Positions 473 to 12,261 of a stretch of DNA of 43,880 nucleotides are shown in pieces. The stretch covers positions 1 to 43,880 of the forward strand of contig NYZP01000010.1 in assembly GCA_002687175.1 (NCBI GenBank), in the 5' to 3' direction. Made by a program: the position numbers and the translations under genes. The notes under the pieces were generated by a model, which was given only the letters and a program-made list of their open reading frames with translations, did no database searches and was not told the origin of the DNA. The stretch's first letter is position 1; every line of letters starts with the position of its first letter. Source of the stretch: Parcubacteria group bacterium. Lineage in GTDB: Bacteria > Patescibacteriota > Patescibacteriia > Buchananbacterales > UBA6539.

Positions 473-2449
473 ATGTTGCCAATTGAACTATGGACCGGGG
501 TTGTTGCCCTCATCGGTTTAGCCTTTGCCGCCTACTTAGCGACTAATTTAAAAAAACAAAAAGTTGTTGATCAAAAAGCTAAAGAAATTTCAGATCACAT
601 CCACGATGGTGCAATGACTTTTTTAAACAAAGAATATAAGATTTTAGTAATTTTTGTAATCGTTGTTGCTGTTTTAATTTTACTGGCACCAGCCTTAAGC
701 TGGAAAACTGCGATTACCTTTGTCATTGGTGCGGCTTTTTCTATTGCCGCTGGTAACATTGGCATGCGCGTTGCCACCATGGCCAACGTTAGAACAGCTG
801 AAGCGGCCAAAAAAGATTTATCCAGTGGCCTAGAAGTTGCTTTCTCTTCCGGTAGCGTTATGGGTTTAACAGTGGTTGGGCTTGGCCTACTTGGCGTAAG
901 TGTTTTATATACTATCTTTAAAGATCCTCAAATTATTTATGGCTTTGGATTTGGTGCCTCTTCGGTGGCTTTATTCGCCCGGGTTGGTGGCGGAATTTAT
1001 ACTAAGGCAGCTGACGTCGGGGCTGATCTGGTTGGAAAAGTTGAAGCTGGTATTCCCGAAGACGATCCCCGAAACCCGGCCACTATTGCTGACAATGTTG
1101 GTGACAATGTTGGTGATGTCGCTGGCATGGGAGCCGACTTGTTTGAAAGTTATGTTGATTCAATTATTGCCGCCATGGCTCTGGGTATCTTAGGAGTAGC
1201 CACTTTTGGCGAACAAGCTGTTATTCTACCGTTAGTGTTAGCCGCGGTTGGTATTGTCTCAGCTATTTTGGGTAATTTTGTAGTTAAATTTTTTAAAAAA
1301 AGCAGTCCCCATAAAGTTCTTAATTGGGGCATTTGGTCAGCCTCTGGCTTTACCGCCATTGGCGCCTTTCCCGCCATTTATTACACCATTGGTCATATGG
1401 GAGTTTACTACTCGCTGTTGACCGGTTTAGTGGCAGGAATTGTTATTGGTTTAGTAACTGAGTATTATACTTCCGATAAAAGAAAGCCAGCCCAAGAAGT
1501 GGCCAAGGCTTCCGAGAGCGGGCCAGCCACTAATATTATTGCGGGCTTTGCTTTAGGGTTAATGAGTACTGTCGTGCCTGTCTTGGTTGTGTCAGCAGCC
1601 ATATTTTTGTCATCACAGTTTGCTGGACTGTTTGGTATTGCTATTGCCGCGGTTGGCATGTTAGCTACTTTAGGTATTACCTTAGCCGCTGACACCTATG
1701 GTCCTGTGGCTGATAACGCCGCCGGGATTGCGGAAATGGCGGGGATGGGACAGGAAGCCAGGGAACGAGCTGAGGAGCTGGACGCTGTAGGAAATACTAC
1801 TGCCGCTATTGGTAAAGGTTTTGCCATTGGCTCGGCAGCGCTTACTGCTTTGGTACTGTTGGTCAGTTTTGGTCAAGCAGTTAATTTAGAAATAGTTAAT
1901 CTTTTAGATTCAAATGTTTTAATTGGTTTATTCCTTGGGGCTTTGCTACCAGCCGTGTTTTCTGCATTATCCATGAAAGCCGTTGGTAAAGCGGCCTTTG
2001 AAATGGTTCAGGAAGTTCGACGACAGTTTAAAGAAATTCCCGGCATTATGGAAGGCACCGGTAAACCAGACTATAAGAAATGTATTGATATTTCAACTGC
2101 TGCTGCTTTAAAAAGAATGATTGCTCCTGGTTTGTTGGCGGTATCAGCCCCAATAATTGTTGGGTTAATTTTAGGAGCACCGGCTTTGATTGGTATGTTA
2201 TCTGGCTCGCTGGTGACCGGATTTTTATTAGCCGTTATTATGGCCAATGCCGGTGGTGCCTGGGACAATGCTAAAAAATATATTGAAGCCGGCAACTTAG
2301 GTGGCAAGGGTTCAGAGGCCCACAAAGCGGCCGTAGCTGGTGACACCGTTGGTGATCCCTTTAAAGATACTTCTGGTCCAGCCTTAAATATTCTGATCAA
2401 GTTGATGACTATTGTTTCGTTAGTTATCGCACCTCTGCTAGTACTATAA
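473..2449 (+). CDS. hppA: membrane-integral ion-translocating pyrophosphatase, K+-dependent, probably Na+-pumping
   Basis: Motifs [35 protein letters not shown] (Ala = K+-dependent), [22 protein letters not shown]; many TM helices. Confidence 0.97.
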
Positions 2450-8105: not shown

Positions 8106-9188
8106 TCAAAGATCAGTCGGAGAAAATTGATCAAGAAAATCAACTATAATCTGCCAATTTTCGGCTGACCACAACTCTTGGTTGCTACTTTGTCGAAAGA
8201 ACAAATCAAGACCATGTCCTGAATCAACCGTTTCCAGTTGTGAAAAAGCGCCAACCTCACGAAGAGCCAAATCAAGAGCATTCCCCTGTTCGGGTGGTAC
8301 CAATTGGTCCAACTCTCCTTGGAGGATTAAAATTGGTGGGTACTCTGTACCAGCTTGATTGATCATCACATGATACAGGGGCGACATTAATCTAAGTTCT
8401 TCTAGTGATAGACCAAGGCTGCTGTCTTGAGACGATATGACTGCCATCATTACTTGGAGTAATAAGCTTCGTAAACTAACTAATCGTTCAAACAATACAG
8501 TCGTCTCACCGGCTTGATCTGGAGAGTTAAGTATTGATACCATGTCCGTTGGTGCGGCCAAAAGGACAGCACAAGCAATTTGATCACGTGATACTTCTTC
8601 GTTAACTTCAGTTGACAATAAACCGGCTAGATGCCCGCCAGCGGAGTGACCACCAATTGCTACGCCATTTTCTATTTGGAGATCGTACCGTTCAACCACC
8701 GCGGGATTGAGAACCCAACTTAGGGCCAAGCGACAATCCTCAATCATTGCTGGCCAAGAATCAACAGGTGCTAAACGATAGTTAATCACAAAAACGACAT
8801 AACCCTTTTCCGCTAAATCTCTGGCGTCAGGTTCAAAGCTACTTTTATCACCACCTATCAAAGCACCGCCATGAATTAGAATAATCGGCGGACCAGGTCT
8901 GGTGTAATAAACATCGGCCACTAATTCCTTGCTCGAAAAAAAATCTGAATCCCTGATAGAACTAACCACCTCGTCGGTGATGTTCAAAATCCACGCTATA
9001 ACTTCATCTGTAGATTCTTCTTGCTTCAATTCCTCCTTCAACAACTTGGCTTCTACTTCAAGTTGATCTGCCAATTGCTGCAGCCCTTTGTTGTACAGAG
9101 TATCTTGAACTGTCTCTGACAAGTCGATTTCTACGAACTCGTCGTACCGAACGTTTCTTTCAATGGTGTAATTACTTGTCTGGGACAC
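8106..9188 (-). CDS. alpha/beta hydrolase (HSL-like esterase/lipase); signal peptide lies in another frame from 9250
   Basis: HGGA oxyanion motif, INYRLAP, GHSAGG nucleophile elbow, QGELD, GHG. Confidence 0.9.
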   Translation of the reverse strand: MSQTSNYTIERNVRYDEFVEIDLSETVQDTLYNKGLQQLADQLEVEAKLLKEELKQEESTDEVIAWILNITDEVVSSIRDSDFFSSKELVADVYYTRPGPPIILIHGGALIGGDKSSFEPDARDLAEKGYVVFVINYRLAPVDSWPAMIEDCRLALSWVLNPAVVERYDLQIENGVAIGGHSAGGHLAGLLSTEVNEEVSRDQIACAVLLAAPTDMVSILNSPDQAGETTVLFERLVSLRSLLLQVMMAVISSQDSSLGLSLEELRLMSPLYHVMINQAGTEYPPILILQGELDQLVPPEQGNALDLALREVGAFSQLETVDSGHGLDLFFRQSSNQELWSAENWQIIVDFLDQFSPTDL

Positions 9189-9417
9189 CCTAAACTAAAA
9201 AGAAGCAGGGCCGGAAAGATTAACAGTTGAACTGGTAACTTTTTTCTCATTTTCCCTCTCCTTCTCTAGGTTTGGCTATCAACCAATTTATTTAAAATGT
9301 ACAACAACAATTTAATAAAACTTAACAAAAAAAACTTTTTTAGTCAATTAAAAAAATGATCCAAATTTACAAATAGAAAAATGGCTCCGTCTTTAACAGA
9401 CAGAGCCAGATGCAATA

Positions 9418-9720
9418 TTATTGTGCGGGTCTTTTGATAACAGTTGGCTGCATTGCCTCGGCTACTTCTTCAGGCAGTAGGTTAACTGTAACGGCAGCGC
9501 CAGTTTTGGATTCCCGGCGAGCTTGCCTTTGAGCAAATTCAATTTCAATTTGATCAACTTCTCTTCCTACCTTTGCACCGGTTTTCTGATCTTCTTTGGA
9601 AATCAGATAGCGTGGATTTTTAGAGTCACCCATGGTAGCAATGATTACCCAGCCTGAGTCCAGCTTGTGAGTCTTGTTTCTGACGATTGGTACAACATCA
9701 TCCAGTTTAAATCGCCACAT
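9418..9720 (-). CDS. hypothetical protein
   Basis: ATG with AAGGAG SD; downstream hairpin near 9383-9408. Confidence 0.6.
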   Translation of the reverse strand: MWRFKLDDVVPIVRNKTHKLDSGWVIIATMGDSKNPRYLISKEDQKTGAKVGREVDQIEIEFAQRQARRESKTGAAVTVNLLPEEVAEAMQPTVIKRPAQ

Positions 9721-9944
9721 ATTGCTTCTCCTTGGACCACTTTTTGACTGAATTCCGCTTTTCAGCCAGAATTTAAACTACAATTTATAACTTGCATAAC
9801 TATCACAAATGAACTATGATGGTTAATACGTCAGCCTACCACAGAAAATCAAAAAAAGTCAATCAAAGTTAAAAGTCAAAAATAAATAAAAGTAAATAAA
9901 ATCGCTAATTCAAGCGGTTTTTTGGTTTTTTAAATTACACAATC

Positions 9945-9973
9945 TTGACAACATTACTGAATTATGATATTAT
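9945..9973 (+). promoter_or_regulatory. sigma70-type promoter pointing into the structured element
   Basis: TTGACA-17 nt-TATTAT with TG extension. Confidence 0.6.
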
Positions 9974-9996
9974 AGTTAGTTGTTTTGTTAATTGAA

Positions 9997-10381
9997 AATC
10001 TGCTCAAAAGCCTGCAGACAGCCCAAACAGGGTTCGAACTTCCTCCAGAAGTGCTTATTGTGCCATCTTAGGAGGGGGCTTATCGACCTGCAGAAAATGG
10101 ATAGCAAGTACAATTTTGTACCTTTCAATTACAAACCTCCTTTCACTTGTTATCCATTTTCTGCAGGCACGACAAGCACGGAGTTTATTTTTTGGAACAT
10201 CCGGCCTTGGCTCGATACTTCCTAAAAATAAACTTCTTGTCTGCAGACTTCTGAACAGATTGACAGAATAACCTGCTTAAAAATTTGCAAACACCAATGA
10301 TAAAACCCTTGTTCCGCCCCTCACCTTGAGTGAGCAAAGCGAACGAAAGGATGATGGGGTCTGCAGACTTCTGAGCAGATT
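9997..10381. ncRNA. unidentified highly structured element (ncRNA or tandem MITEs)
   Basis: Four copies of a 23-24-nt motif in alternating orientation, plus an internal 23-bp hairpin and further stems. Confidence 0.55.
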
Positions 10382-10403
10382 ATACTAAAATATAATATGC
10401 TTT

Positions 10404-10442
10404 AAAAAAATCACCGCCCTATAAAAAGGGTGGTGATTTTTT
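10404..10442. terminator. bidirectional intrinsic terminator
   Basis: A7-TCACCGCCCT-loop-AGGGTGGTGA-T6. Confidence 0.8.
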
Positions 10443-12261
10443 ACTCTCCAATGATTGATTCAATGTACTCTTCTTCACTAAGTTCTGAATCAGGATCCCG
10501 GCCGACTAGCCAAGTCTCCCGCCAGGCCACGTAATGCGAATAAAAATCTTCATCAACAACCTCACCGTCAGGATATTTTACTGAATATTGAAAATAAGTA
10601 TCAGCACCTGGATGAGAGGACTCAACTCGTTTTAACTCTCCAGGTGACAAGTCATCGGTTAAAACATAACGTGGTGGTCCGGGTTTGGTTACATTATAAA
10701 TAGATGGCGGATTAGGTTCAATGGTAACTTCACGTCCATCATCAGTGCCATAAAATTCAAACACTAACTCATCGCCTTCCATTCTGGCAATAAATAAAAC
10801 ATGGTAGCCAGTATCATTTAAAAACTTCATATCTGGTGCTGGATCATAAATTGTGGCGTCCATCCCGGCTGGTTCATAGTAACGAACTCTATAAGAGTGA
10901 TTACGTCTAGCGGTGATCGGTAGACCTGACCACAAGGCTGCTCTAAAAGTGGTACTGCCAATCTGACAAAGCCCACCACCGTATTCGGGAATCGTGCGGT
11001 CGCCCTTAATCACTAACTCTTTCAAATAGCCATTAACACCGTCAATATCACCCAGGGCGTCAATCAACGAAAACTCTTCGTCCGGAGCAATAAGCACTCC
11101 GTTCAAGCTGTCAACTCCTGTACCAATGTTGTGCCTACGATTTACCGGACTCCCGGAAAAATCTGATCTGCCACGTCCCAGTAACTCTTTGATCCCTAGA
11201 TCATTAAGGTCCTCGGTTGCCACTTTGGCCAGATCAACTTCAACCACTAAATCAATGAGTAAATGTTCACCCATGATAATATTATTATTTAAAATCTGGT
11301 AGCTACTTTCTAAATTTAACTGCAGACCATCACGGCTTGATTGAAATTCCGAAACTCTCTCACCTTCAAGTTCAAACTTAGCGTCAACAGTTTCCACATT
11401 TATTTCTTTGGCGATTGATTCTAAAAATTCAAAAACTTTTTCCTGATTTGCGGCAATAACTACACTATCATCAAAAAGCTGGAACTCTAGCCATGATGTC
11501 AATTTATCTTTAGTTACTGGCCAAAGATCATCTTCATATTTTAAATTTATTAATTCAACATCTAAAATCCTATCCAAATCTTCCAAGGCTAGATTAGTTT
11601 GTTCTTTTTTGATTTCTGGTTCTTTAAAATCTAAGTCTAAACTAACTGGTTTAAAATCCAAATGAGTGATATTGTCTCTTAACTTTTTAGTGGCCAGTAA
11701 ATAATCAAAAACTACACCAGATTCTTCACCAAGCACTTCGGCTTCGCCATCTTTAATAACTAACTGAGCATTGATTGGTGGTTTTTCTAATTCAGAAAAA
11801 CTGGTCTGCAAATGATCAATTAATTCAAATTCATCAAGAACATAAGATACTGGAACTGTTGTTCCAAAAGCCAGAGTTTTAAGTTGGCTTGCAAAATTTT
11901 GAATAAAATTTCCTGACCGACCAACGTTTAGGGCAGCGTCAACGGTTCGTTGCCAATCAAAAACTAAAATTTGTTGGGCTAAATCAGGAGCCGTAGAAAT
12001 AACAATCGGATTTACCGAAACTTCTTTTTCCATTGATTTAAAAATTAAACCAGTAGACTGTATTTCGTCTTCAATAGCAAAAAACTGATCTAATAATTCT
12101 TGTTGATTTTTATTGCTAACGTCAATACCATTAATTTTTACCCCCGGAAAAACTCTTTGGGCATATGACAAGTTATAACTAATTCCAAAACCAAAAATAA
12201 AAATTAAAAAAATAGCGGTCAAAACTAACCACCCTTTATTTATTTTATATTTGGAAAACAT
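10441..12261 (-). CDS. VanW-family protein with N-terminal anchor and putative peptidoglycan-binding repeats
   Basis: PGVKINGIDVS, NRRHNI, GGGLCQIGSTTFRAA, RRNHS, GMDATIY, DMKFLNDT. Confidence 0.92.
   Translation of the reverse strand: MFSKYKINKGWLVLTAIFLIFIFGFGISYNLSYAQRVFPGVKINGIDVSNKNQQELLDQFFAIEDEIQSTGLIFKSMEKEVSVNPIVISTAPDLAQQILVFDWQRTVDAALNVGRSGNFIQNFASQLKTLAFGTTVPVSYVLDEFELIDHLQTSFSELEKPPINAQLVIKDGEAEVLGEESGVVFDYLLATKKLRDNITHLDFKPVSLDLDFKEPEIKKEQTNLALEDLDRILDVELINLKYEDDLWPVTKDKLTSWLEFQLFDDSVVIAANQEKVFEFLESIAKEINVETVDAKFELEGERVSEFQSSRDGLQLNLESSYQILNNNIIMGEHLLIDLVVEVDLAKVATEDLNDLGIKELLGRGRSDFSGSPVNRRHNIGTGVDSLNGVLIAPDEEFSLIDALGDIDGVNGYLKELVIKGDRTIPEYGGGLCQIGSTTFRAALWSGLPITARRNHSYRVRYYEPAGMDATIYDPAPDMKFLNDTGYHVLFIARMEGDELVFEFYGTDDGREVTIEPNPPSIYNVTKPGPPRYVLTDDLSPGELKRVESSHPGADTYFQYSVKYPDGEVVDEDFYSHYVAWRETWLVGRDPDSELSEEEYIESIIGE

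Follow-up and report, generated by a model that had tools for sequence, protein, structure and literature searches.

Structured small RNAs are a familiar kind of bacterial gene product, and the element described here resembles several of them in part. The window that we analysed is a stretch of 43,880 nucleotides from a Parcubacteria group bacterium (contig NYZP01000010.1, positions 1 to 43,880). Its region 9945-10442 had been singled out in an earlier note made from the letters alone, and the sequence of the region is as that note read it. We find that positions 9997-10261 of the plus strand are almost certainly a real, conserved RNA gene. For the locus as a whole, we lean, on balance, towards a small RNA with a stable fold, and we take it for the long form of a so far uncatalogued family that is nearly universal, and usually single-copy, in the bacterial class to which the organism belongs.

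Among described systems, 6S RNA and Ms1 belong to the nearest in general design. Like them, this RNA is transcribed separately, has the shape of a rod, is preceded by a strong promoter and occurs in about one copy per genome. It differs from 6S RNA in that it carries an invariant, one-sided 10-nt bulge, has no two-sided central bubble and is not matched by the 6S model. As in the RNA of the signal-recognition particle (SRP; 4.5S RNA), an internal loop is conserved within a hairpin of about 115 nt, but there is neither a model match nor a conserved tetraloop, and the proteins Ffh and FtsY were not found in these genomes.

Another point of reference is the group of trans-acting small RNAs that carry an ultra-conserved, single-stranded seed or a C/U-rich anti-Shine-Dalgarno loop, namely Yfr1 in cyanobacteria and RsaE/RoxS and RNAIII in Firmicutes. 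In common with trans-acting small RNAs that have a conserved seed, the RNA has a promoter and a terminator of its own and an invariant unpaired stretch, and its long form has predicted exposed CCUCC-type loops complementary to the Shine-Dalgarno sequence. It would differ from Yfr1, RsaE/RoxS and RNAIII in being much larger, in placing its seed in the bulge of a long rod and, in the long form, in masking that bulge with its own complement. The long form also recalls the 3' end of 16S rRNA, where helix 45 is followed by the anti-Shine-Dalgarno tail and which is bound by Era, KsgA and YbeY. The likeness consists of a small hairpin followed by ACCUCCUUUC in the window and of a GAAA-capped hairpin followed by AUCCUCCUUUC at one other locus (L056); the mimic is, however, an internal loop instead of a free 3' end, and the sequence of its hairpin is unlike that of helix 45. 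Finally, inverted 23-nt ends and a strong foldback are reminiscent of miniature inverted-repeat transposable elements (MITEs), of which RUP, BOX and Correia are examples, whereas the locus is single-copy, syntenic and evolving under the constraint of RNA pairing.

Distribution of the RNA family

A BLASTN search, which the earlier note had put forward as a check, found homologues in all but two of the 19 other genomes examined from the family (17 of 19), and a few more turned up elsewhere in the order; identity was 71-84%, and the aligned stretch was in every case 9996-10261 alone. Scanning a genome collection with the most conserved 18-mer gave at least 119 loci, a number to be read against the roughly 140 chance matches expected by our own arithmetic. 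Among the matches listed, 72 of the 119 loci carry the RNA, as judged by the 5' motif together with its 3' partner and also by nhmmer. The record labels of these 72 carriers are Candidatus Uhrbacteria, Buchananbacteria, Parcubacteria or Patescibacteria group; the first two are, we assume, placed by GTDB in class ABY1.

These genomes have a "short form" of the RNA, a single irregular hairpin of about 115 nt that is equivalent to window positions 10152-10260. A covariance model built from 31 short forms (R1) matches 133 of the 151 genomes sampled from the window's class, including 125 of the 136 of high quality, and it does so nearly always once per genome. In a phylum-wide sample the same model matches 8 of 151 genomes, seven of which are of the class (the window's own included); outside the class, it matches only one of the 144 sampled genomes of the phylum. 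This one outside match (L161, G178:C11), from another class, is a promoter-driven, core-like hairpin RNA without the 10-nt bulge that lies convergent to a VanW-type gene, as the RNA does in the window; it may be a distant relative outside the class.

Rfam 15 holds no family that matches around the element at E up to 10 (window 9000-11500), and a scan of 20 homologous loci, with a limit of E 0.1, gave no match either. No description of the RNA was found in the literature searched, most subscription journals and supplements lying outside that search, and the motif entered as a word returned two primer sequences only. None of six terms looked up in one 2024 paper in Nucleic Acids Research (PMC11109978) occurs there. 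Within the reach of these searches the family is undescribed, and it is absent from Rfam 15.

Core structure and covariation

Compensatory changes lend strong support to the base pairing of the RNA. In the alignment of 19 homologues, RNAalifold reports compensatory changes at 27 of 63 pairs, concentrated in the outer half of the closing helix (P1). For two further alignments, A2 and A3, the motif served as the criterion of selection, and its invariance in them is therefore by construction; in A3, 88.6% of the cells pair, compared with at most 48.8% when the partners are slid. Alignment A4 was not chosen by the motif; its 37 matches come from 35 loci, of which 33 belong to class genomes, one is that of the window and one lies outside the class. 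Both partners have changed in 42 of its 47 pairs, and the share of cells that pair is 88.9%, as against 61.7% after shuffling (none of 500 shuffles reached so high a value) and at most 47.8% with slid partners.

Two segments are at least 90% conserved in A4, the 5' context CACGACAAGCAYGG and the 3' UCUUG (window 10235-10239). Together they form the bulge of 10 nt, CGACAAGCAY, which faces a single U. Next to it stand a C-G and an A-U pair on one side, and a G-C pair and a conserved G-U pair on the other. The core also keeps a GG/CC block of pairs and an apical GGY/RCU hairpin with a conserved G-U. The CTGCAG palindromes are not conserved across the class, and the part of P1 that holds them in the window covaries freely.

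The strand can be assigned with the same material. The earlier note had described a mixed G-U polarity, with the closing stems favouring the minus strand and the internal stems the plus strand; conserved G-U pairs on the plus strand in the 19-homologue, A3 and A4 alignments, together with the promoters, resolve this for the plus strand. An exact TTGACA-N16-18-TANNNT lies within 200 nt upstream on the RNA strand at 29 of 33 class loci and on the opposite strand at none of the 33. Further, a U-tract follows P1 directly at 17 of the 33 loci, and the rod itself therefore probably terminates transcription. The novel non-coding RNA that the earlier note had proposed is borne out by the distribution within family and class, by the lack of any Rfam match, 6S RNA included, and by this strong covariation.

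The locus in the window

The features of the region are as follows.

9945-9973, plus strand: sigma-70-type promoter, TTGACA-17-TATTAT with a TG extension; 11 of 12 matches in the promoter scan
9997-10019, plus strand: 5' strand of the closing helix P1, from the inverted-repeat search; its outer 13 pairs are rich in compensatory changes among the 19 homologues
10042-10075, plus strand: stem CCUCC (10042-10046) / GGAGG (10071-10075) around the anti-bulge GUGCUUAUUGUGCC (10051-10064), predicted by folding
10087-10167, plus strand: long hairpin of 23 bp, from the inverted-repeat search, folding and the homologue alignment
within the apex of the 10087-10167 hairpin, plus strand: small hairpin UUUGUA (10115-10120) / UACAAA (10130-10135) with the loop CCUUUCAAU
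10135-10144, plus strand: copy of the 16S tail (anti-Shine-Dalgarno), predicted to be single-stranded; the same 10-mer is in the organism's own 16S rRNA
10152-10260, plus strand: class-wide conserved core, an irregular rod hairpin; R1 match of 62.9 bits, E 2.3e-14
10170-10179, plus strand: 10-nt bulge CGACAAGCAC, facing a single U, from alignment A4
10239-10261, plus strand: 3' strand of P1, from the inverted-repeat search, the homologue alignment and the motif count
10262-10381, plus strand: lineage-specific 3' appendix ("unit 2"), with strand copies 96% identical and 120 nt apart; its parts are a weak look-alike of the 5' strand (10270-10292) and, at 10359-10381, the 3' strand of P1 a second time
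10405-10442, both strands: bidirectional intrinsic terminator, common to the RNA and the convergent VanW-type gene; 16-nt arms, 94% complementary
10441-12261, minus strand: convergent neighbouring open reading frame (ORF) for a 606-aa PG_binding_4 and VanW protein, not part of the RNA; Pfam, VanW E 1.4e-36

The promoter is the one that the earlier note had described as a good sigma70 promoter, and from its position the transcript should start near 9980. The predicted RNA 9980-10445 folds with -174.8 kcal/mol (z = -11.65), and none of 100 shuffled sequences folds as well. The bidirectional terminator of that note likewise holds up, as a hairpin of 16 bp bordered by an A run and a T run, which was found as an inverted repeat and is missing from the list of the terminator scan. 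Also confirmed is the 23-bp hairpin with an anti-Shine-Dalgarno element in its loop: its arms (10087-10109 / 10145-10167) are 96% complementary, and the DNA letters of the loop element at 10135-10144 are ACCTCCTTTC. A further stem that had been pointed out, GGAGTTTATTTTT / AAAAATAAACTTC, was found within the element as an inverted repeat, and the inverted-repeat search of the window detected the stem GGAGUUUAUUUUU / AAAAAUAAACUUC as well. CTGCAG does recur at the five positions named earlier (10012, 10088, 10161, 10241 and 10361), which are five of the ten sites in the 43.9-kb window.

The 23-mer motif had been reported in four copies, three of which are firm. They lie at 9997-10019 (plus), 10239-10261 (minus) and 10359-10381 (minus), with 2, 1 and 0 mismatches, respectively, where 100 shuffles predict none. 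The fourth, at 10270, is weak, being identical at 17 of 23 positions, and six unrelated sites in the genome match equally well; it pairs with 10359-10381 at 19 of 23 positions. The statement that no convincing gene lies on the plus strand agrees with our results, given that the small ORFs that overlap the element belong to no Pfam family and that insertions and deletions among the homologues are not multiples of three. The 1.12-Mb genome holds one copy of the element, and R1 also has one match in it.

The long form

The long form adds about 150 nt on the 5' side of the core; all the examples seen come from the window's order or from a small number of further records of metagenome-assembled genomes. 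In it, the old 5' strand of P1 closes the new 23-bp hairpin (10087-10167), while the old 3' strand has a new partner, the 5' strand at 9997-10019. All 19 distinct long forms keep two features of the add-on, namely the anti-bulge and a hairpin followed by CCUCCUUU.

The anti-bulge, GUGCUUNUUGUGCC in the window (10051-10064), is complementary to the bulge and to the bulge's 5' flank. No other site makes a better duplex with the bulge in any of the long forms (19 of 19), the free energies being -15.8 to -22.3 kcal/mol compared with shuffle means of -10.4 to -13.3 kcal/mol. Changes on one side keep the pairing: a C of the core has become U opposite G in L013, and UUGUGCC has become CCGUGCC in L012 and L020. 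The short forms have no comparable partner of the bulge within 200 nt, and none that exceeds the shuffles.

The second feature occupies the apical loop of the long hairpin, where the small hairpin and the motif after it stand in this order in 19 of 19 long forms. The window's copy matches the 3' tail of the organism's own 16S rRNA (contig C2, starting at C2:43591) at 10 of 10 positions. This 10-mer occurs 12 times in the genome, the RNA and the 16S tail included, and the other ten occurrences appear, from their context, to be mostly the antisense of ribosome-binding sites. L021, like L056, keeps a hairpin followed by the AUCCUCCUUUC element despite a different hairpin sequence. Insertions are found directly after CCUCCUU in the apical loop, one of about 110 nt in L017 (locus 1491-1874, minus strand) and an extra small hairpin in both L016 and L018; the apical loop of the long hairpin therefore tolerates insertions.

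Proposed function and alternatives

These features suggest how the RNA might act. The bulge would be its working surface, either a base-pairing seed or a site of protein recognition; because the long forms carry a built-in complement to it, we take base pairing to be how it would work. In the long form, the bulge would be held in an intramolecular pseudoknot, while the add-on would expose the hairpin and the 16S-tail copy after it, in imitation of the 3' end of 16S rRNA. In this way the RNA could tune translation, by binding either to Shine-Dalgarno regions in mRNAs or to a factor with specificity for the 16S 3' end; Shine-Dalgarno leaders such as GAAAGGAGGU would be candidate ligands of the long form. 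We put forward this mechanism, in which base pairing by the bulge is combined with engagement of the Shine-Dalgarno sequence or of a 16S 3'-end factor, as a tentative proposal that is possible but not probable. A broader idea strikes us as doubtful: the class-wide core would be a housekeeping RNA of a new kind, with a nucleic-acid partner to which its invariant bulge pairs, and the long form would be the same RNA fused to a copy of the partner site and to a decoy of the 16S 3' end. The RNA is likely to be central to these cells, given that it is present as a single copy in about nine of ten class genomes, with an invariant loop and a strong promoter.

Several results weigh against the account just given. 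The sequence of the RNA is in none of the public RNA runs listed. Only A4 is free of bias from selection by the motif, yet A4 was aligned to the structure of the model. The pairing of anti-bulge with bulge shows no double compensatory change, which we ascribe to the invariance of the core side, and the GGCA part of the anti-bulge would compete with neighbouring helices. The 16S mimic may serve the RNA's own folding, since the internal GGAGG (10071-10075) could occupy the CCUCC element. Partners for the bulge were sought in several places. Allowing up to three mismatches, there is no site complementary to it in or near the VanW-type gene at the 34 sampled loci or in the window, and a search of the window's genome for its complement gave no clear target, with nothing standing out. 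Nor does 23S rRNA qualify as the partner: of the 151 class genomes only 5 carry a 23S variant complementary to the bulge, which itself does not vary, and on this ground we reject the pairing.

The organism's own 23S rRNA (G000:C23:14799-14820, minus strand) does contain CUUGUCGUG, which is complementary to the bulge over 9 nt; this complementarity is probably due to chance. Mimicry of 16S or 23S rRNA by the bulge was considered as well, and no match was found.

The gene content around the RNA offers a different explanation, in which the RNA would control the VanW-type gene in cis, as an antisense or riboswitch-like element. This gene is convergent downstream of the RNA at 27 of 34 sampled loci (33 of the class plus L161), mostly at a distance of 84-183 nt; it is adjacent in another arrangement at 3 more, and it is found at at least 53 loci from the BLAST homologues and the 18-mer scan. 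The fold would decide between a stop at P1 and its U-tract and read-through as antisense into the gene. The U-tract that directly follows P1 at about half of the class loci fits such a switch, and the invariant loop nucleotides resemble a ligand pocket. The arrangement is, however, not a fixed one. The gap measures 0.7-1.1 kb at 8 of the 27 convergent loci, and in at least one of these eight (L165) the promoter and start codon of a same-strand gene follow the RNA. At L155 and L158 the VanW-type gene lies upstream on the same strand, and at 4 loci there is none within 1.5 kb. In the window itself, a strong terminator separates the RNA from the gene, and the RNA does not lie, as a riboswitch or cis-leader would, in the 5' leader of a co-directional gene, being followed by this terminator and then by a convergent gene. 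Further, a VanW-type gene is present in 112 of 151 genomes of the phylum, yet the RNA was not found beside it at 26 loci of other classes, where R1 gave nothing significant (best E 0.12). We consider control of this gene in cis to be unlikely.

A functional counterpart of 6S RNA or Ms1 for the class, that is, a rod-shaped binder of RNA polymerase, has in its favour the rod shape, the strong promoter and the one copy per genome. The Rfam 6S model (RF00013) recognises 19 of 121 genomes of the phylum and none of those of the class that were tested (the window's genome, 5 other carriers and 6 of 6 class genomes), so that the slot of 6S RNA looks empty in the class. The shape agrees with 6S RNA only in outline, since there is no central bubble with both strands open and the one large loop has 10 nt on one strand and 1 nt on the other. 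Throughout the class this loop keeps the same sequence, unlike that of 6S RNA, and RF00013 gives no match even at E up to 10, whether in window 9000-11500 or genome-wide. Of 6 genuine 6S loci from other classes, none lies beside a VanW-type gene. We regard this identity as quite unlikely.

A divergent, 4.5S-like SRP RNA was a further candidate. In its favour, the core hairpin is about 115 nt long and its internal loop is conserved, and Rfam models (RF00169, RF01854) find no SRP RNA in the window's genome or in 5 other carriers. The proteins argue otherwise. No Ffh M domain (PF02978) is encoded in the window's genome or in those carriers, and there is no SRP54-type GTPase (PF00448; Ffh or FtsY) in the genome; 31 relatives and a further set of 81 genomes from the phylum gave no more than short P-loop matches. 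The apical loop, moreover, is variable and has no conserved GNRA tetraloop. A divergent SRP RNA is therefore very improbable. SRP subunits are absent from many bacteria of the candidate phyla radiation (CPR), according to Moreira et al. (2021, PMC8080830); in passages of two TM7x transcriptome papers, SRP genes are mentioned for the host only. The earlier note had recognised no tmRNA, RNase P RNA or SRP RNA in the element, and rightly: beyond the lack of an SRP match, RNase P RNA (C30, 120 bits) and tmRNA (C21, 95 bits) are encoded elsewhere. The same is true of 5S rRNA (C23, 90 bits). As for a Y RNA or YrlA, the partner protein Ro60 (TROVE, PF05731), whose gene usually lies nearby, is encoded by 1 of 61 class genomes, the window's genome has none, and there is no Rfam match.

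Tandem MITEs, which the earlier note had offered as the alternative to a processed non-coding RNA, or another DNA repeat, would account for the inverted terminal 23-nt motifs and for the clustered palindromic CTGCAG sites. A mobile repeat would hardly be limited to one copy in this genome and usually one in each of 133 class genomes, the few with two having them in tandem. The location is syntenic, the covariation keeps RNA pairs with G-U pairs on one strand only, and CTGCAG is not conserved across the class. A DNA repeat of this kind is extremely improbable, and that part of the earlier proposal falls.

Should the broader idea, of a core fused to a copy of its partner site and to a 16S decoy, prove true, the long form would act as a molecular switch, titrating either mRNAs with a Shine-Dalgarno sequence or a 16S 3'-end factor such as Era, KsgA or YbeY. 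Such an RNA would act in bacteria that lack SRP and much other machinery. The Patescibacteria, or CPR, make up a very large and almost uncultured share of bacterial diversity and have tiny genomes, and R1 adds a model with which these can be annotated. The family is a defined object of about 115 nt with one invariant bulge, and can be tested as such; the two hints in the long form, the complement of the bulge and the mimic of the 16S tail, make the mechanism testable in vitro.

Neighbouring genes and tandem copies

In contrast to the recurring VanW-type gene, the upstream neighbours are variable. By Pfam at 29 loci they include ClpP (7) and RuvB (6), the others being trigger factor, NusB-NUDIX and more. 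In the window, both upstream neighbours are on the minus strand, an alpha/beta hydrolase and a 100-aa ORF without a known family. The latter (9418-9720, minus strand) has no Pfam match, and tblastn found no counterpart of it beside the RNA at the BLAST-homologue loci or the listed 18-mer loci. A terminator-like hairpin with a T run stands just upstream of the RNA promoter (9898-9921, plus strand), with no plus-strand gene before it. An origin of replication was considered for the region and rejected, as DnaA boxes are not enriched: the window has 5 where 13 are expected, and the 34 sampled loci have 26 compared with 27 in shuffles. DnaA-box-like words (TGTGGATAA) flank the RNA in L043, L058, L064, L080 and similar loci of the Uhrbacteria type.

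The earlier note had divided the element into two tandem units. The first of these is the conserved RNA, and the division stands to that extent; the second (10262-10381) is limited to the window and two relatives. It is absent from most relatives, where the terminator follows the RNA directly, and a homologous appendix is found only in L016 and L018. In each of these, the second copy of the closing strand is identical to the lineage's own strand, a look-alike of the weak 10270 copy is also present, and a further stem-closed module follows the second closing strand. In the window, the distal copy (10359-10381) can pair with 9997-10019 at 21 of 23 positions and the proximal copy at 20 of 23. We infer that unit 2 is a decayed partial tandem duplicate that would still offer an alternative closing strand. 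The long closing stems might be cut by RNase III, as happens in rRNA operons.

Second copies of the core in tandem were also seen in some genomes with the short form (L052, L101, L033, L026, L082 and others, as well as G228, G246 and G286). The second copy is directly adjacent in G246 and G286 and otherwise lies about 230 nt downstream. In the second copies that were read, P1 has changed to GGCUAGGCA / UGCCUGGCC, and the bulge has been kept. Finally, L173 has a partial repeat of the 3' half of the core (GGGAGGAAGCAAUUGGCUUCGCUG...CUUCUUGAGUGCGAA) about 15-80 nt downstream of the core, another sign of tandem duplication of the gene.

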